A DNA stretch of 39,905 bases. Origin: Chiloscyllium plagiosum (taxonomy: Eukaryota). The DNA is taken from positions 14,612,762 through 14,652,666 of the forward strand of contig NC_057752.1 in the NCBI RefSeq assembly GCF_004010195.1. Reading direction: 5' to 3'. The translations under genes were made by a program, and so were the position numbers. This document shows, piece by piece, positions 3,758 to 39,905 of this stretch. Position 1 is the stretch's first letter. Each line of letters begins with the position of its first letter. The notes under the pieces are model-generated. The model was given only the letters and a program-made list of their open reading frames with translations. It was not told the origin of the DNA and searched no databases.

Positions 3758-4046
3758 ATCTTGGCATCTGTTATGTTGCTTTCATTCTGCAGCTGTCTGA
3801 TGTTCCAGGGACATTTGAACCACTCACAAGCCTTAGGGTGACTGCTGGACAACAAGCTTAATGGCTCTTGTACACAAACCATGCACAAATTCATAGTGTG
3901 TACATAATGAAAGTCATGCTTTGATGCCAAGTGTGTTAGGGAAGATCATTGCTGCATTGATACAACATGTCAAGACCTCTTGGGGAGCCCCGTTGTATTC
4001 TTGGCAGAGCAGGAGTCAGAATTTATCTCAGTCTGCTGCACGCAAG

Positions 4047-4177
4047 GAGAAAGTGAGCACGGCAGATGCTGGAGATCAGAGTCGAAGAGTGTGTTGCTGG
4101 AAAAGCACAGCCGGTCAGGCAGCATCTGAGGAGCAGGAGTATCGATGTTTCGGGCATATGCCCTTCATCAGGAATGA
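4047..4177 (-). mobile_element. Penelope-like element terminal fragment with hammerhead motif
   Basis: Homologous to 24519-24647 and 39492-39618. The minus strand reads ATTC CTGATGA A GGGC ATAT GCCC GAAA CATC GAT (4175-4141). Confidence 0.85.
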
Positions 4178-4454
4178 GGCTGGACATGCTAGGCAAACGC
4201 ATTAACATTAAAAGACAGCCCTGCTCAACAATGAGCGCCTCAAGAGGATGAAGAGGGAGAGGAGGAACAGGACGTGTGGAGGGAGCAGCTGGAGGACGGG
4301 AAGAGGAAACTTGGAGAACCCATTTCTGGCAGCACTGTCCTTGAAGGTGATACAGGAAGGGGAAGGTAGGGACGTGGGTTGTGGTGGGTGGAGTGTGAGA
4401 AAGAGAGTTAGGTTTAATAACAGTGCCACCTTCAATGATTTCAGTGTTGGCTAT

Positions 4455-8759: not shown

Positions 8760-9253
8760 AAACCTACCATGGAGTATTGTGTCCAGTTCTCGTCTCCATG
8801 ATATAGAAAAAATATTGTTAAGCTGGAGAGGGTTCAGAAGAGATTTATGAGGATGTTGCCGGAAATGGAGAGTGTGAGTTAGGAGAGGTTGGATAGGCTG
8901 GGATTTTCTTCATTGGAGCATAGGAGGCTGAGGGGTGACCTTATCGAGGTTTATAAAATCATGAGGGGTTTAGATAAGGTAAATGGCAGGTGCCTTTTCC
9001 CTAGGTTTAAAAAAGACAGTGAGTTTTCTGTGTGTGGAATGAACTTCCTGAGGAAGTGGTGGATGTGGGTACAAATGTAATGTTTAAAAGACATTTGGAT
9101 AAGTACATGAATAGGAAAGGTTTGGAGTGTATGAGCCAGGAGCAGGCAGGTGGGACGGGTTTAGTTTGGGATTATGGTCGGCATGGATTGGTTGGACCGA
9201 AGGGTCTGTTTCCATGCTGTATGAATCTCTGACTCGATGACTGGCTCTATGAC
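8760..9253 (+). mobile_element. CR1 LINE, 5'-truncated with internal deletion
   Basis: EYCVQF.SP, KLERVQKRF.RMLP, RLRGDLIEVYKIMRG and WNELPEEVV motifs; degenerate CTCTATGAC tail. Confidence 0.9.
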
Positions 9254-9280
9254 ATATCCACATTGGAACCACTCTGAATT

Positions 9281-10846
9281 AGAGTCATAGAGTCATAGAG
9301 ATGTACAGCATGGCAACAGACCCTTCAGTCCATCCCGTCCATGCCGACCAGATATCCCAACCCAATCTAGTCCCAACAGCCATTACCCGGGCCATATCCC
9401 TCCAAACCCTTCCTATTCATATACCCATCCAAATGCCTCTTAAATGTTGTAATTGTACCAGCCTCCACCACTTCCTCTGGCAGCTCATTCCATACACGTA
9501 CCACCCTCTGTGTGAAAAGGTTGCCCCTTAGGTCTCTCTTATATCTTTCCCCTCTCACCCTAAACCTATGCCCTCTAGTTCTGAACTCCCTGACCCCAGG
9601 GAAAAGACTTTGTCTACTTATCTGATTCATGCCCCTTATAATTTTGTAAACCTCTATAAGGTCACCCCTCAGGTTCGGACGCTCCAGGGAAAATAGTCCC
9701 AGTTTGTTCAGCCTCTCCCTGTAGCTCAAATCCTCCAACCCCGGCAACATCCTTGTAAATCCTTTCTGAACCTTTCAAGTTTCACAACATCTTTCTGATA
9801 GGAAGGAGACCAGAATTGCACACAATATTCCAACAGTGGCCTAACCAATGTCCTGTACAGCCGCAACATGACTTCCCAACTCCTGTACTCAATGCTCTGA
9901 CCAATAAAGGAAAGCATACAAAATGCCTTCTTCACTATCCNNNNNNNNNNNNNNNNNNNNNNNNNNNNNNNNNNNNNNNNNNNNNNNNNNNNNNNNNNNN
10001 NNNNNNNNNNNNNNNNNNNNNNNNNNNNNNNNNNNNNNNNNNNNNNNNNNNNNNNNNNNNNNNNNNNNNNNNNNNNNNNNNNNNNNNNNNNNNNNNNNNN
10101 NNNNNNNNNNNNNNNNNNNNNNNNNNNNNNNNNNNNNNNNNNNNNNNNNNNNNNNNNNNNNNNNNNNNNNNNNNNNNNNNNNNNNNNNNNNNNNNNNNNN
10201 NNNNNNNNNNNNNNNNNNNNNNNNNNNNNNNNNNNNNNNNNNNNNNNNNNNNNNNNNNNNNNNNNNNNNNNNNNNNNNNNNNNNNNNNNNNNNNNNNNNN
10301 NNNNNNNTTCAAAAAACTCAATCAAGTTTGTGAGACATGATTTCCCACGCACAAAGCCATGTTGACTATCCCAAATTGGTCCTTGCCTTTCTAAATACAT
10401 GTACATCCTGTCCCTCAGGATTCCCTCCAACAACTTGCCCACCACCGAGGTCAGGCTCATTGGTCTATAGTTCCCTGGCTTGTCCTTACCGCCCTTCTTA
10501 AACAGTGGCACCAAGTTCGCCAACCTCCAATCTTCCGGCATCTCACCTGTGACTATCGATGATACAAATATCTCAGCAAGAGGCCCAACAATCACTTCTC
10601 TAGCTTCCCACAGAGTTCTAGGATACACCTGATCAGGTCCTGGGAACTTATTCACCTGTATGCGTTTCAAGGCATCCAGCACGTCCTCCTCTGTAATATA
10701 GACATTTTGCAAGGTGTCACCATCTATTTCCCTACAGTCTATATCTTCCATATCCTTTTCTACACTAAATACTGATGCAAAATATTTAGTATCTCCCCCA
10801 TTTTCTGCAGCTCCACACAAAGGCCGCCTTGCTGATCTGTGAGGGG
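9281..10846 (-). mobile_element. Young CR1 LINE ORF2 (RT) fragment spanning an assembly gap
   Basis: ORF 9726-10820 contains KYFASVF, PGPDQVYPRTL, DWRLANLVPLFKKG, NYRPMSLTSVVGKLLE and SQHGFVRGKSCLTNLIEFFE. ORF 9367-9750 gives the C-terminus; (ATAGAGTC)n tail. Confidence 0.95.
9941..10307. other. Assembly gap (367 N)
   Basis: Run of N. Confidence 1.
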
Positions 10847-11040
10847 CACAACAATACTCCCAGTTTTTTAGATCTAGTTGATACGTTTCTTAACTCTATC
10901 TGTTTCCATTCATTCCCCTCACATCCTTCCCAAAGAAAGACTTTTGGCTTTTCCAAGGAATTCACTGCCAATTTTAAATTGTGCTACGACCTCCACAGTT
11001 TCACCCCAAAAAATCTTTTCTCTTCCTTTCCATTTTATTT

Positions 11041-11234
11041 GATGTGGAGGAGCCGTGTTGGATTGGGGTGGACAAAGTTCAAAATCAAGCAACACCAGGT
11101 TATGGTCCAACAGGTTTATTTGGAAGCACTAGCTTTCGGAGCGCTGCTCCTTCATCAGCTGGAATCACCTGATGAAGGAGCAGCACTCTGAAAGCTCGTG
11201 CTCCTAAATAAACCTGTTTGACTATAACCTCGTA
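11041..11234. mobile_element. PLE-terminus-derived hairpin insertion with two inverted hammerhead motifs and a 13-bp TSD
   Basis: Arms 11097-11158 and 11169-11230 are reverse complements. TCCATTTTATTTG occurs at 11029-11041 and 11235-11247. Confidence 0.85.
11166..11200 (+). ncRNA. Minimal type I hammerhead ribozyme motif (inverted second copy at 11127-11161 on the minus strand)
   Basis: CAC CUGAUGA A GGAG CAGCA CUCU GAAA GCUC GUG: stem I CAC/GUG, conserved core, stem II, palindromic AGCU stem III and NUH triplet CUC. The minus copy has a perfect GGAGC/GCUCC stem II and a CUA triplet. Confidence 0.7.
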
Positions 11235-11537
11235 TCCATTTTATTTGTCATTCATGAGCTGGCCCTTGGTGACATGATTGAAATGTTGAAAATTCACAAG
11301 TGGCTCTGACTCCTCGTGTATTACTCAAGTCGGTACAGCTGCAACACTCTGAGATTGCTGAACCCTCCAATTCGGAGCTTTGAGAGCAAAGATTCAAATT
11401 GTCATGCAATCCTCCTTCATGTCTTCGAGTATAGAAGTCTTAAGCTCTGGAGCTCCCCACAAAAATAACTCTACGCATCTCTACTTTAAACATGTAAACG
11501 ATCATCTCACCAAATAGGTCACCGCGATGTTGAATGC

Positions 11538-17545: not shown

Positions 17546-17740
17546 GAGACAAAAAAACTGCAGATGCTGGAATCCAAAGTAGGCAGGCAGGAGTCTGGGA
17601 GGACACAGCAGGCCAGGCAACGTCAGAAGGTGGAAACGTCAATGTTTCAGATATAACCCTTATACCAGAAACATTGACTTCTCCACCTCCTGATGTTGCC
17701 TGGCTTGCTGTGTCCTCCCAGCCTCCTGCTTGTCTACTTT
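17546..17740. mobile_element. PLE-terminus-derived asymmetric hairpin
   Basis: AAAACTGCAGATGCTGGAA terminus. Arms 17576-17648 and 17668-17740 are reverse complements; the hammerhead core is deleted at the loop. Confidence 0.8.
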
Positions 17741-17751
17741 ACCCACAAAAG

Positions 17752-21273: not shown

Positions 21274-21610
21274 AGTGCTTCACTGGAATTGAACAATGAG
21301 ACTCAATGGACAATATCAAATCCAACTAAAAAAGTGACAGAGACAGGGATAGAGAAAGGGTCAGATAGAGGGAGAGAGTGACAGAGGCGGAGAGAGAAGT
21401 GTGAGTCAGGTAGAGACAAGAGTCCAATTTGTGACACTCACAGATTGCTGATTCTATGAAACTGCCGGACTCCCTCCTTGTTCATTCTCTGATATTTCAG
21501 TTCTGTTACATCACTGACACTCTAAATAAAACACAGCTGTCCGCCAGCAAGTGTGATCCGACAGTGTGGCAATAATTCAGCAAAGGTCTTCCTGAAATCT
21601 AATGCTGTCT

Positions 21611-22066
21611 CAGCGCTGACCCTCCGACATTGTGGCACTTGCTCAGCATTGACCATCTGACAGTGCGGCACTCCCTCAGAATTTACCCTCTGACAATGCA
21701 GCATTCCCACAGTCCTGACCCTCCGACAGTGCAGCAGTCCATCAGCACTGACCTTCCGACAGTGCAGCACTCTCTCAGCATTGACCCTCCAACAGTGCGG
21801 CACTCCCTCAGTTCTGACCCTCCGACAGTGTGGCACTCCCTCAGTACTGACCCTCCGACAGTGCAGCACTCCCTCAGTACTGACCCTCTGACAGTCAGCG
21901 CTCCCTCACCACTGACCGTCTGACAGTGCTGCAGTCTCTCAGTACTGACCCTCGGATGGTGAGGTACTGCCTCAGCACTGACCCACTGACGGTGCGGCAC
22001 TCCCTCAGTACTGACCCTCTGACAATGCTGCACTCCCTCAGTATTGAATGCACTGACAATGCTGCA
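21611..22066. repeat. 33-bp minisatellite, about 13-14 units, probably DeuSINE-derived
   Basis: Unit CAGTACTGACCCTCCGACAGTGCAGCACTCCCT at 21611, 21644, 21677, 21710, 21743 and onward. Antisense CAGTACTGAGGGAGTGCTGCACTGTCGGAGG matches my recollection of the Deu-domain SINE core. Confidence 0.9.
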
Positions 22067-22619
22067 GGCTGATTATGCAGAACAGCAGTGGGGTAGGTCC
22101 CAGTGTTTGTGGACTCTCTGACACACCAATGTTCTCTCTGTGCTCTGAGACTTTAGCTCTCGTGCAATGCTGCATCTTTACACAGATAGATATATGGAGA
22201 TAGATTTCAGAAGCCCACGTGAAGGAGGATCAACGTGTCCTTGTACATTCATCATGACCGAATGCAAGTCACTTTCAATCGTTAGTGGAATGTAGGCATT
22301 GATTGCAGGAAATTTGATTTTCAAATCATCGTCCAGCCAACTGCACTGAGCCCAGCTGGAGTCTTGTGCACTGTGTTCATTGGTGAAGAAGGATATGCTT
22401 ATCATTGGGAGTTTTTCATAGATTATCTGCAAGATGTATTTCTCTGATGTACAAATTTAGATCCTGCATAACAGGTTGTATCTCTTGGACAATGAGTCAT
22501 TAGTGATGTGAGAATCGACAAGTGGTTTTGATGGAAACGTTGATCTGACTGGATGATAAATGCATTTAGCTTAAAGGACATCTACCTGGGTCACTGATCA
22601 GCATTCCTGTGTACATTGT

Positions 22620-24062: not shown

Positions 24063-24610
24063 AAGAAAATCAGCAACCCCTGAATCGATCGCTGTTGGCA
24101 AACTTGGACCATATTCAACAACCTTCTAATATTATTAGAGGACCTACGGCCCCTTATAAAGCCTGTCTGGTCCTCTTTAATAATATGGGGCAACACCCTT
24201 TCCAATCTCAGCGCCAGGATCTTGGACAGAATCTTGAAATCTGAATTTAATAGAGAGATCGGCCTGTATGAGGCACAGTCCTAACGAACTTTCCCCTTCT
24301 TAAGAATTAAGGAAATATTAGCTTCTCTCAAAGATGGTGGTAGGCGTTCATGCATATAGGAGTGATTGTACATCTCCAACATCGGCCCTGACAGAATCCC
24401 TATAAACTCCTTATAAAACTCACCCGGAAGACCATCAGGGCCAGGCGCTTTCCCACTCTGAAGTTGTCTCGCTGCCTCCTGTATGTCCTGAACTGTCAAG
24501 GGGGCATTAAGGAGAGAGGAGAAAGTGAGTTCTGCAGACGCTGGAGATCAAAGCTGAAACTTTATTGCTGGAACAGCACAGCAGGTCAGGCAGCATCTAG
24601 GGAACAGAAG

Positions 24611-24646
24611 ATTCGACGTTTCGGGCACATGCCCTTCTTCAGGAAT
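24611..24646 (-). ncRNA. Minimal type I hammerhead ribozyme motif, best-preserved copy
   Basis: AUUC CUGAAGA A GGGC AUGU GCCC GAAA CGUC GAAU: 4-bp stem I, intact core, 4-bp stem II, palindromic ACGU stem III and GUC triplet. Confidence 0.75.
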
Positions 24647-25257
24647 GAGCAGAGAGTGTTCAGCAGGAGAAGATAAAAGGTAGGGAGGAGGGACTTGGAG
24701 GAGGGGCGTTGGAAATGTGATAGGTGGAAAGAGGTAAAGGTGAAGGTGATAGGTCGGAGTAGGGTGGAGGCGGAGAGGGCAAGAAGAAGACTGCAGGCCA
24801 GGAAGGCGGTGCCGGGCTGGAGGGATTCGGCTGAGACAAGGTGGGGGGAGGGGGGATGACACCTGCCTTTGGGACAGGACATATCCAGGGATGATGATGG
24901 TGCTGTCTGGATTATATCTGTAAGGTAAAATTCAGTGAATATGCCTATGTCAGGCTGTTGCTTGACTTGTCTGTAAAAGGGTCTGTATCTTCCGACTGGG
25001 ATCCCTCCAACCGCAGGGGATGAACTTGGACTTCACCAGTTTCTTCATCCCCCCTCCCCCCACCTTGTCTCCGCCGGATCCCTCCAGCCCGGCACTGCCT
25101 TCCTGACCTGTAGTCTTCTTCTTGACCTCTCCGCCTCCACCCTACTCCGACCTATCACCCTCACCTTGACCTCTTTCCACCTATCACATTTCCAACGCCC
25201 CTCCTCCAAGTCCCTCCTCCCTACCTTTTATCTTCTCCTGCTGAACACTCTCTGCTC

Positions 25258-25293
25258 ATTCCTGAAGAAGGGCATGTGCCCGAAACGTTGAAT
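25258..25293 (+). ncRNA. Minimal hammerhead motif, inverted sister copy (GUU triplet)
   Basis: AUUC CUGAAGA A GGGC AUGU GCCC GAAA CGUU GAAU. Confidence 0.68.
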
Positions 25294-27259
25294 CTTCTGT
25301 TCCCTAGATGCTGCCTGACCTGCTGTGCTGTTCCAGCAATAAAGTTTCAGCATTAAGGAGAGAGGCCTGTTCCAAGGTTACACCTGGGAGGTCCAGGTTC
25401 TTAAAAAAAGGTCTCCATTTTAGCCCTCCTGTCCTCGCAACCTTCAGACTGATACAATTCAGCGTAAAAACTCCGAAAAGCCTCATTAATCTTTTTAGCA
25501 TCGTATGTAAGGACCCCGGCGCTGTCTCTAATGTCAGTAATGGATTGGGGTGCACGCTTTTTCCCAGTCAGGTATGCTAAACACTTCCCTGGCCTATCTC
25601 CACATTCGGATAGCCTTTGTCTAGCAAAAGCAAGTTCTTTCTTTGCTTTTGTGTCAGCATTGAATTCAAGGCAGCCCAGAGGGCCGTGATCCACTGTAGC
25701 TCAGTCATCGAAGGCTGCGCAAAATGTGCTGCCTTGGCGGCTTTCAACCACATCTCAAGTAGATGCTGCTGTTCCTCCTTTTATCGTTTCCAGCTAGCTG
25801 AATAGGAAATAGCTAATCCCCTAGAAAAGGCCTTAGCATCGATGGACTAATAGCCGTGCCTGAGCTGATCGTCAAAATTTGGAATCCTCATGGAGAAAAG
25901 GGTCCAAACGCCAGTGCCGCAAACCTAGCCCCTCACTCTTGGCCTTAACCTCCAAATATACCTTTGCTTGATCAGAGATAGCTATATTCCCAATTTTACA
26001 ACCCATAATCGAATCCAGAAGGGCCGAGGTAGCCAGAAAGAGGTTAATCCTTGTGTGACATTTATGTGGATTTGCAAAAAAGGTGAAGTCCCTGCTGGTA
26101 GGGTGAAGACATCTCCAAATATCCACCAGCCCCAACTCCTCGCATAAGTCAACCACCTGCCTGGCCTGCGAAAAAATATTTGTGGGCCCTCAAGGCAACC
26201 TGTCCACTCTCGGATCCAAAAGACAATTAACATCCCCCCCACCCCCTCCCTATAATAATGTGCGGTGTTCCAAATGCAATTAACTTGGAGAAAGCACTAA
26301 TCAAAAATTTGAGATGAAGAGCTGGAGGACAGTAGACATTTAAAATGCGATATTCCTCCCCATGTAACAGGGCTTTAACTATCATAAATCGTCCCTGCGC
26401 ATCTTTCACCTGCTCGAATAATGTGAACGGAAGCATTTTCTGGATAAGTACCACCACTCTCCCCTACTTTTAGTAGTTAAGGCTGAAAAGAATACCCGGT
26501 CATACCCCCCTGTTGTAATTTCAGGTGTTCCCCATCATCAAGATGGGTCTCCTGCAACAAAGCGATATCTACCCTTTCCCTCCTAAGGCTGGAAATCCCT
26601 TTTTTTTCCTTTTAACAGGCGAATGGCTTCCCTTAATGTTCCAGGTGCACCATATAATAAGACACTTACCCATATCCCCTTTCAGAGACCCTTGAACCCC
26701 TTGGACGGAGAACCCTGCTTACAAAGCGCTGAGCATAAATAAATAAAGACACATAGAATCGAAAAACTATATATACAAAAACTGCTCTATCACAACTATA
26801 AACAACTATTACTGCCAAAAACCTACAAAGAAAACCAACTATAAAACTTTGAATGGAAGACTCTTCCCCCTGCCCATAGGGGGCACTCACTATACCCATC
26901 CCTTCCTTCACAGCTCCTTCAAACCCGGACTATGTCCCACTGTTAGGCCAGAAAAAAAAACAAGGAGATGATTCTTAAAACACCATAAAAAAGACAAAGT
27001 CAGGATGAGCACTCCACCCATCCCTGGCTTCATGTCACTCCTACTTGTGACTAAAAGAGAAACAGAACAAACAAAAAAGGGGAAAGACAACAAAGAACTT
27101 TCACAAAATTTCCCATCAGAAAATCCAGTTATTAAAAAAAAGGAACAACTTATTCCAATATCTTTTCCCCCCTTTCCAAAAAGGAAATTATGAGGGAAAA
27201 GAAAGGAATTTTAAAAAAGGAAGGGAAAACATGGGGAAAGATAGAAAAGAGAACAAACA

Positions 27260-28756: not shown

Positions 28757-29650
28757 TCACCTCTTGGCTGCTTCTCTCCATTTATTTATTTTTTTAAAGA
28801 ATCGAGCAATTGGTGCAACCAAAGTGTCCTTGACCTGCTGTCTAAACTTGGATAGTGTTGCCAAATACGTAAAGGCACTTGTGCAAGAACGAACATTCCT
28901 CAGAATAAGTGCAATGTCTCGACATATTTTGATAGCTTCAGTTAGATAATCTCTCCTCACACGATAACGTACGACATTTATAATGTAGCCCATCCATAGA
29001 AGTACAAAACTGCCGGAAATAGTGAAGAGTAAAGTAATTGACGTTCTTCTATTCTCTATCTCAAGGTCACTGTGGTTCTCTCCTTTATTCTGACCCCTCA
29101 GTCCCTTGCGGACTCGACTAACGAATAAAATGTGCTTGACTGTCAGAGTGTTGAGTAGCAGAATTAATACAAATGGGAGCAAAGGGGTTATAAGCTTGTG
29201 AAACAAGTCATGCCTCTCCATCCTGCCTCAGTCAAATAGATTTCCTTAGGCTTACTTTCTAAGGGATATTGTTGACTATGTACGGAGGTTTATATTTAAA
29301 GTAGATAGGCACATTTTTAATGCAGGTTGTTGCAAGAATCACCGTGCAGTTGTGTCAGTGCAATATTTTGTTTTCTGCTTATGGCAAAAACAAGGACACA
29401 AATCAATTAAAGGAGAAAAAGCCAGTGAACCAGACAGAAGAGACAGAAGAGAAAGCATACAAAAATGACACATGGCAATGAGATTCAGGAAAGAGTCCTG
29501 TGAAGCATATAAGGTAGTAGTTTGCTTCTGGATGGTGTTAGTGATAGTAGACAGTAGATCCATCGTTGATATGACAACGAAGTAGTGAGTGGTGCAAGTG
29601 GAGAGGCCAACTTTACACGGGAAAGAAAATCACAATCGCAAGTAAGTTAA
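28757..29650 (-). pseudogene. GPR139/GPR142-like class A GPCR pseudogene, exon 2 (end of TM1 to C-terminus)
   Basis: (V)NLLAIVI, GLSTCTTHYFVVISTMDLL, WFTGFFSFN*FV (TGA at 29405-29403 where the DRF arginine should be), KTKYCT, KNVPIYF, NIP* (29261-29259), then ORF 28757-29221 LITPLLPFVLILLLNTLTVKHIL..SRVRKGLRG..DLEIENRR.SITLLFTISGSFVLLW..SCTSAFTYLATLSKFR. Several frameshifts; the acceptor reads AA rather than AG. Confidence 0.9.
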
Positions 29651-30692: not shown

Positions 30693-30960
30693 AAAAGTGT
30701 AATTAAATAATAATAGCAGTTGTCATAGAGTTGTTAACTGCTCTGTTAATAGATATTTCGTTATACTGAGCTAGTTAAAACAGTGGGTCAAACCTCATAT
30801 TCTCAACTCAACCATGAATGACAAGGAATACAAAATATTTCGATTTACTTCAAAGGACACCATGCTGAACTCAAAAGCAAGCAAGCTCTCTGATGAAGGA
30901 TATTTTTCAGCGCAGTTCAGATCATAAATTGCTTCAGTGAAAGAGGATAGTTAGTGCACA

Positions 30961-31097
30961 ATAAAACCTGAATGAACTGTGGATGCTGTAAATCGAAACA
31001 AAAATAATAATTGCTGGAAAAGCTCAGCAGGTCTGGCAGCATCTGTGGAGTGAAATCAGAGTTAACTTTCGGGTCCAGTGATCCTTCCTCACATCAA
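30961..31097 (-). mobile_element. PLE terminal fragment with 10-bp TSD
   Basis: GAACTGTGGATGCTG...GCTGGAAAAGCTCAGCAGGTCTGGCAGCATCTG...TTTCGGGTCCAGTGATCCTTCCTC. TTAGTGCACA occurs at 30951-30960 and 31098-31107. The hammerhead core is degenerate. Confidence 0.8.
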
Positions 31098-39489: not shown

Positions 39490-39905
39490 GTAAAAACAAT
39501 GACTGCAGATGCTGGAAACCAGATTCTGGATTAGTGGTGTTGGAAGAGCACAGCAGTTCAGGCAGCATCCAAGGAGCAGCGAAATCGACGTTTTGGGCAA
39601 AAGCCCTTCATCAGGAATAAAGGCAGTGAGCCTGGAGCATGGAGAGATAAGCTAGAGGAGGGTGCGGGTGGGGAGAAAGTAGCATAGAGTACAATAGGTG
39701 AGTGGGGGAGGGGATGAAGGCGATAGGTCAGGGAGGAGAGGGTGGAGTGGATAGGTGGAAAAGGAGATAGGCAGGTAGGACAAGTCCGGACAAGTCATGG
39801 GGACAGTGCTGAGCTGGAAGTTTGGAACTAGGGTGAGGTGGGGGAAGGGGAAATGAGGAAACTGTTGAAGTCCACATTGATGCCCTGGGATTGAAGTGTT
39901 CCGAG
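39490..39905 (-). mobile_element. Penelope-like element 3' end, running off the window
   Basis: The minus strand begins LGTLQSQGINVDFNSFLI (GIY-YIG C-terminus). The hammerhead-like CTGATGA A GGGC TTTT GCCC AAAA CGTC at ~39586-39614 has GAAA mutated to AAAA. Terminus is GACTGCAGATGCTGG. Confidence 0.88.

Follow-up and report, generated by a model that had tools for sequence, protein, structure and literature searches.

Minimal type I hammerhead motifs in Neptune-type Penelope-like elements of Chiloscyllium plagiosum and their probable position at the template RNA's 5' end

The 39,905-nt stretch of the Chiloscyllium plagiosum genome analysed here (hereafter the window) contains minimal type I hammerhead ribozyme motifs in the pseudo-LTRs of Neptune-type Penelope-like elements (PLEs), which probably represent the first 32–37 bases of a capped and mostly uncut template RNA. 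The families of this genome, at least eight in number and present in approximately 10^5 copies, constitute a statistical record of template ends that bears on the function of PLE hammerheads. This record argues for a capped, uncut template and for a position of the ribozyme at the 5' end of the transcript in the Neptune-type families.

The hammerhead motif at positions 24611–24646

The minus strand of positions 24611–24646 contains a full hammerhead core with a 4-bp stem I, an extra A after A9, and a 4-bp stem II. After stem II come GAAA, a bridge of two bases, and the triplet at which cleavage is predicted, and stem III lacks a loop; the core boxes CUGANGA, GAAA, and NUH are present in the window in the type I order that defines PLE-type minimal hammerheads. 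A preliminary description of this DNA had read the copy as a complete minimal hammerhead, and a strict descriptor confirmed the core, the extra A, and both stems. The descriptor match also predicts the cleavage site previously proposed, i.e. between 24615 and 24614, and self-cleavage of this intact family-1 copy is accordingly placed after C17 as a prediction. Its first base, 24646, coincides with the family edge designated +1 below.

The strict descriptor matched the window three times (24642 on the minus strand, 25262 and 11169 on the plus strand), whereas 200 shuffles averaged 0.01 matches each, and it matched 768,741 random genomic bases (80 random 10-kb stretches) 18 times, compared with 0 in three shuffled sets. 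All 18 genomic matches possess the extra base and a loopless palindromic stem III, though the descriptor permitted other forms. A loose core pattern gave 12 matches in the window, approximately half of which are related to no family. An Rfam scan of the window yielded nine weak matches, none of them to a hammerhead, and no Rfam model caught these motifs.

As a monomer, the bare 24611 motif is predicted to fold at -7.8 kcal/mol with stems I and II only, and stem I is predicted to be lost when 100 nt of downstream sequence are included. For two motifs, an intermolecular stem II duplex (-26.4 kcal/mol) is favoured over the double hammerhead (-14.5 kcal/mol). Both predictions suggest that unaided cleavage should be poor. 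The 4-bp stem I is a minority form within family 1, in the commonest subfamilies of which the third position of stem I is a U-U mismatch (30 of 42 exact copies).

The Penelope-like element carrying the motif

The 24611 motif and a second motif at 25258 reside in two inverted pseudo-LTR arms of 310 nt each, which are 97% complementary. The inverted arm (24516–24859, minus strand) has a long tail, to approximately +131, and matches another locus (L285) as far as 24516, whereas the direct arm (25045–25354, plus strand) has a short tail, to approximately +95. The two copies of a 16-bp target-site duplication are found at 24504–24519 and 25350–25365, the last bases of the left copy overlapping the arm end. 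The C-terminal end of a GIY-YIG endonuclease reading frame was identified between the arms on the plus strand (24978–25049; tblastn E 1.8e-07). The inverted pseudo-LTR, the one-sided 30–40-bp tail, and the target duplication are all marks of endonuclease-positive (EN+) PLEs.

The 25-kb copy enters the GIY-YIG C-terminus and shares 95% identity with the 3' end of elements at other genomic sites that encode a reverse transcriptase (RT) and an endonuclease, which bears out the earlier assignment of the motifs to the minimal type I hammerheads of PLE pseudo-LTRs. Five long copies were fetched by a search with the RT thumb of a related locus. Three of them, matching the window at 91–95%, contain in order the RT, a cysteine-rich linker, GIY-YIG, the pseudo-LTR, and the same hammerhead. 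The linker of these relatives has the pattern C-x4-C-x2-C before GIY-YIG, and Pfam detected RVT_1 (E 9e-08, above the cut-off) and GIY-YIG (E 2.5e-04; 21.7 bits, just under the cut-off of 22.6). Only in the relatives does a single ORF, located before the pseudo-LTR, join an RT to a C-terminal GIY-YIG; the window copy retains the last codons alone, and none of the five long copies includes a 5' pseudo-LTR together with the ORF start. Judged from its sequence by the linker criterion given in the main text of PMC8557442, the element is of the Neptune type. In family 2, one decayed copy (L177) has a PLE RT upstream in the same orientation, which is 29% identical to that of family 1.

Positions 24860–25050 form a 189-bp chimera, in which a reversed non-PLE fragment (24860–24977, listed on the plus strand), which we take to resemble a LINE endonuclease, is joined to the PLE endonuclease end. 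The chimera recurs with 99–100% identity in 11 other loci that have differing pseudo-LTRs, the non-PLE fragment being identical in all 11, and in seven of these loci an N gap interrupts the sequence at the very base where the inversion junction of the window lies. Either this is a young subfamily of non-autonomous elements or gap filling has produced an artefact.

Other copies in the window

The motif of the direct arm (25258–25293, plus strand) is a family-1 hammerhead and satisfies the strict descriptor, but position 17 is U instead of C. An older family-1 stub with a long tail was recognized by sequence comparison at 4045–4178 (minus strand). Its hammerhead at 4141–4175 is indeed related to family 1 but is damaged in stems I and III, i.e. 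only two stem I pairs remain and a G16.2 to A change breaks the stem III palindrome. Another older family-1 copy, starting at approximately 39490 and leaving the window at 39905 within the endonuclease end, carries its hammerhead at 39586–39617 (minus strand). The G12A change reported there is present; however, G12A is an ordinary change (16 of 151 family-1 copies) and this copy belongs to a different subfamily, so the control proposed on this basis would not be isogenic.

Family 2 is represented by a fold-back stub at 11042–11234, around which 13-bp duplications (11029–11041 and 11235–11247) were read by eye. Its plus-strand motif (11166–11200) passed the strict descriptor, with G-U pairs and C at position 17, in agreement with the preliminary description. 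In the minus-strand motif, listed at 11127–11161, the core (11127–11158) is intact, but the 5' arm of stem I (CAC) is absent, having been lost at the inversion junction. The copy noted as decayed at 31060–31090 belongs to a third family, F5; it is part of a stub on the minus strand (approximately 30960 to 31090) with a broken core. A further family, F6, missing from the earlier account, is present as a fold-back stub at approximately 17575–17742, in which the junction has deleted the core and the 5' half of the hammerhead. Among the fetched loci, nothing related to the candidate near 937 was detected (best E 0.93); as it also failed the descriptor, it is attributed to chance rather than to decay.

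Dimer formation in cis is precluded for the copies of the window, because they are solitary or lie on opposite strands, and these dispersed copies are likely to be inert. Among 117 family-1 cores, 76 are solitary, 33 have an opposite-strand neighbour only, and eight have a same-strand neighbour within 1 kb.

Copy number, families, and selection on the fold

One exact family-1 pattern has 38,268 matches in the genome (reversed control, 0), and the family-2 anchor pattern has 33,040. The 117 family-1 cores were found in 1.54 Mb, which extrapolates to approximately 270,000 in the 3.56-Gb genome. Eight families were defined by stem II and loop II only, after inspection in a relaxed scan, and the other positions were then read out; F7 and F6 comprise only two and five copies, respectively. 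The earlier count of at least two families is thus exceeded, at least eight being recognized in the genome, and the extra base is not A in all of them: it is A in six and U in two.

Stem I positions 1–3 are Watson-Crick pairs in 21 of 24 cases over the eight families, with C-G, A-U, U-A, and G-C all in use. When the stem I partners were permuted among families, the mean was 9.1 and 21 was reached in 2 of 40,320 permutations. The covariation anticipated for stems I and II is therefore seen as compensatory change between families, not within family 1. Pair 15.2–16.2 is C-G or G-C in seven of the eight family majorities and G10.1 is present in all eight, whereas position 7 and loop II are variable. 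In one family, F8, U3-A8 replaces C3-G8, a pair that matters in the active conformation of the hammerhead. The stem I pairing and the C3-G8 to U3-A8 swap indicate, at the level of sequence comparison, that the hammerhead fold is under selection.

Family F8 was found at L225, L236, L248, L205, and L209. Families F3 (L046, L070, L095, and L247) and F4 (L064 and L237) carry an extra U rather than A, and their TATA box is located approximately 50 nt before C3; on the basis of an RT motif, we take them to be Poseidon-like. Short head-to-tail arrays of the ribozyme-bearing end, which are retrozyme-like, also occur, namely a 224-bp unit at L153/L154 and three copies approximately 205 bp apart at G000:C2:96929335-96929779, and some of the tandem junctions in such arrays fall on +1/+2. 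In addition, a 19-nt motif downstream of the cut (25307–25325 in the window, and equivalent positions elsewhere) is common to several otherwise different families. It opens with the ATG of a 42-codon frame and is a candidate protein-binding signal.

Distribution of copy ends

The ends of family-1 copies were mapped with an anchor downstream of the cut, so that the ribozyme was not required. In 160 random 10-kb stretches, 216 copies were identified, matches with a score below 70 or an identity below 85% being left out, and removal of nine copies ending at assembly gaps left 207. Their 5' ends were distributed as follows: 32 at or before -11, 21 at -10 to -2, 54 at -1 to +3, 56 at +4 to +14, 22 at +15 to +31, 10 at +32 to +35, and 12 later. 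No peak was found at the cut site among these 207 copies, only two of which start at the expected position, +33; nine start at +33 to +35, and a small excess of starts at the cut is possible. Because 108 of the 207 copies adjoin an inverted arm, the ends are not all independent; when only host-joined copies were considered, 25 of 99 start at -1 to +3. Genome-wide junction patterns, which differ in length and subfamily reach, gave 14,430 matches at +1 and 11,972 at +2, whereas the cut site accounted for 860 and position +37 for 579. The 3' ends gather at approximately +90 to +99 and +128 to +132, corresponding to the PLE tail. A branch-point and splice-acceptor-like stretch occurs at the second 3' end (approximately +118 to +136; L141-L170), and no donor was found.

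The TATA-like box of family 1, TTTTAT at approximately -32, is merely weak. In family 2 (45 copies left after two were dropped), a canonical TATA box is located 30 nt before +1, which is an A situated 8 nt ahead of C3; eight of the 45 copies start at -2 to +2, none at -10 to -3, and none at the cut. In the one long copy of F8, 31 nt separate a TATA box from the 5' edge, and F5 has an initiator-like start 4 nt before C3. The edge precedes C3 by 4 nt in family 1, F5, and F8 and by 8 nt in family 2, whereas the spacing to the TATA box is kept, indicating that the edge tracks promoter spacing and not the fold. The two Poseidon-like families have no +1 edge, and 11 of 13 F3 copies extend past the TATA box.

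The base preceding the start is G in 57 of 100 copies at +1 and in 17 of 100 at +2, by hand tallies of the first 100 matches listed for each. After removal of letters templated by the inverted arm, the values are 34 of 65 and 12 of 71, respectively (also by hand; Fisher p 2e-5). Twenty more loci were added, taken as the first host-joined rows whatever their letter, and 65 starts at +1 were examined. The target duplication could be resolved in 21 of these, a small set. Fourteen of the 21 junctions are flush or joined by microhomology without an extra base (G in four), and seven carry untemplated bases, of which five end in G; both single-base additions are G. An untemplated G is a mark of cap copying in L1 and SVA insertions according to the main text of PMC4859970. 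The +1 edge and the extra G preceding it suggest that the templates are likely to be capped and uncut. Microhomology of 1–4 nt with AT/ATT is used at 12 of the 21 junctions, and this, together with the lack of an extra base at 14, suggests that target choice also helps to shape the +1 peak. A spliced template was ruled out as the source of the edge, because the sequence before +1 is heterogeneous. Single-cell reads on L285 numbered 2,099; they map to both strands with a depth shaped like the genomic copies and show no start or end sites. A second read set contained none.

Alternative origins of the 5' edge

The capped, uncut template is not the only conceivable source of the edge. The hammerheads may be selected while the edge arises because the RT pauses or switches templates where the motif begins with a quasi-palindromic sequence, or from endonuclease nicking combined with ATT microhomology. 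Fold-backs joined between +1 and +15 make up approximately half of the copies, AT/ATT microhomology is used at 12 of the 21 resolved junctions, and the anole enzyme is described in the main text of PMC11167929 as preferring ATT. We nevertheless regard this origin as rather improbable: the edge follows the TATA box at its two different distances from C3, ATT is absent from +1 in family 2 and in F8, and the G excess is specific to +1.

A second explanation, and a somewhat weaker candidate, follows the model of PMC4209133, in which insertion is templated by unit-length or circular RNAs that the ribozyme has cut from tandem transcripts. The selection on the catalytic fold, the short direct tandems, and the slight excess of starts at +33 to +35 all accord with it. 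Linear cut templates, however, predict ends at +33, where family 1 has two of 207 starts and family 2 none of 45, and with a circle no hard edge would be expected at +1; in addition, ribozyme mutants are stated to insert normally in vitro (main text of PMC11167929). Templates of this kind are thus unlikely to account for the observed ends.

A third explanation, in which the motif has kept a hammerhead-like shape as a structural or protein-binding signal and lost cutting, is very improbable. It could be suggested by the commonest subfamilies, whose stem I consists of 2 bp and a U-U mismatch, by the predicted loss of stem I and favoured duplex, and by the low in vitro activity in print. However, the exchange of C3-G8 for U3-A8 and the invariance of the catalytic bases in eight families best fit an active conformation, and related motifs are reported to cleave as dimers or with protein (main texts of PMC4209133 and PMC11167929).

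Proposed life cycle

Given a capped, mostly uncut template, Pol II would start at +1, approximately 30 nt after the TATA-like box in the pseudo-LTR, and the RT-EN protein would prime internally at +95 or +131. Priming on the 5'-terminal repeat of the transcript would run off at the capped end and produce a promoterless 95–131-bp stub, often with a second, inverted arm, whereas priming on the 3' repeat would produce a longer and randomly truncated copy, such as the 25-kb arm of the window. The ribozyme would be maintained by selection in the master elements but would be slow. To build stem III it would rely on a second copy, supplied by another RNA or, in a read-through transcript, by the 3' repeat, and it would probably also require the element protein. 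A cut would take off the cap and the first 32 nt and would trim the 3' repeat, and the ribozyme most likely steers the fate of the RNA (translation, turnover, or monomer release), not the insertion ends.

A more far-reaching version can be offered tentatively. The Neptune-type hammerhead may be the extreme 5' end of a capped mRNA and act as a dimer- and protein-gated self-decapping switch, and the stubs, present by the hundred thousands, may be run-off copies through which the genome records the start site, cap, and cut fraction of each family, with the Poseidon-type elements differing in this respect.

Comparison with known systems

Minimal PLE hammerheads are known from PLEs of fish, coelacanth, frog, and reptiles (Cervera and De la Pena 2014, PMC4209133). 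According to the main text of that paper, they share with the present motifs the core boxes, an extra base between positions 9 and 10.1, G10.1-C11.1, a palindromic 15.2–16.2, the absence of loop III, and the occurrence of several families per genome, mostly as solitary copies and opposite-strand pairs. The U3-A8 variant, which is published for Schistosoma, and weak dimer cleavage are also included; dimer cleavage is further described in a 2017 RNA Biology paper, as cited through PMC6765202. Neither the class of motif nor the extra base nor the idea of dimers is thus new, all three being in print, and the extra A, to judge from these texts, is a general feature and not a peculiarity. Relative to the main text of PMC4209133, the families of this genome are new, families 1 and 2 are shorter (stem II, 4–5 bp; stem I, 2–4 bp), and the family-1 cores (38,268 exact and approximately 270,000 estimated) compare with approximately 9,000 for Xenopus. 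The present addition is the end map, i.e. the TATA spacing, the cap-like G, the lack of a cut-site peak, and the difference between clades, all drawn from DNA alone.

The element resembles the Neptune-clade EN+ PLEs, as presented in the main texts of PMC8557442 and PMC3846280, in its RT, cysteine-rich linker, and C-terminal GIY-YIG, in its pseudo-LTR with TATA/Inr-like motifs and an adjacent inverted copy, and in its 30–40-bp tail at one end and target duplications. It differs in that most insertions here are only 95–131 bp long and begin at the predicted start site.

For the Poseidon element PAc of Anolis (Frangieh et al. 2024), the main text of PMC11167929 describes in vitro two internal priming sites for the RT, which account for the tail, the use of uncut RNA as template, and a hammerhead that cuts only with protein. 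No reads were found to end at the cut site of PAc, and the genomic ends here show no clear peak there. PAc belongs to another clade, however, and its ORF starts inside the ribozyme; within the present genome, too, the Poseidon-like families differ from the Neptune-type families in lacking the +1 edge.

The short direct tandems recall the non-LTR retrozymes of a recent preprint (bioRxiv 10.64898/2026.07.22.740005), the main text of which includes one cartilaginous fish. Tandems are rare here (eight of the 117 cores), and a head-to-tail array with a ribozyme in each unit, as in retrozymes, was not found in the window, where copies are solitary or inverted. No report of shark PLE hammerheads or of a +1 edge was found in a literature search that covered main texts.

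Other features of the window

A long fold-back at 9180–9345 consists of two inverted LINE-like 3' ends and gives spurious microRNA matches in Rfam. On the minus strand, a 156-codon frame at 28757–29227 presumably resembles the end of a seven-transmembrane receptor. Tandem arrays with 33-bp and 53-bp units are located at 21534–22080 and 1–371.
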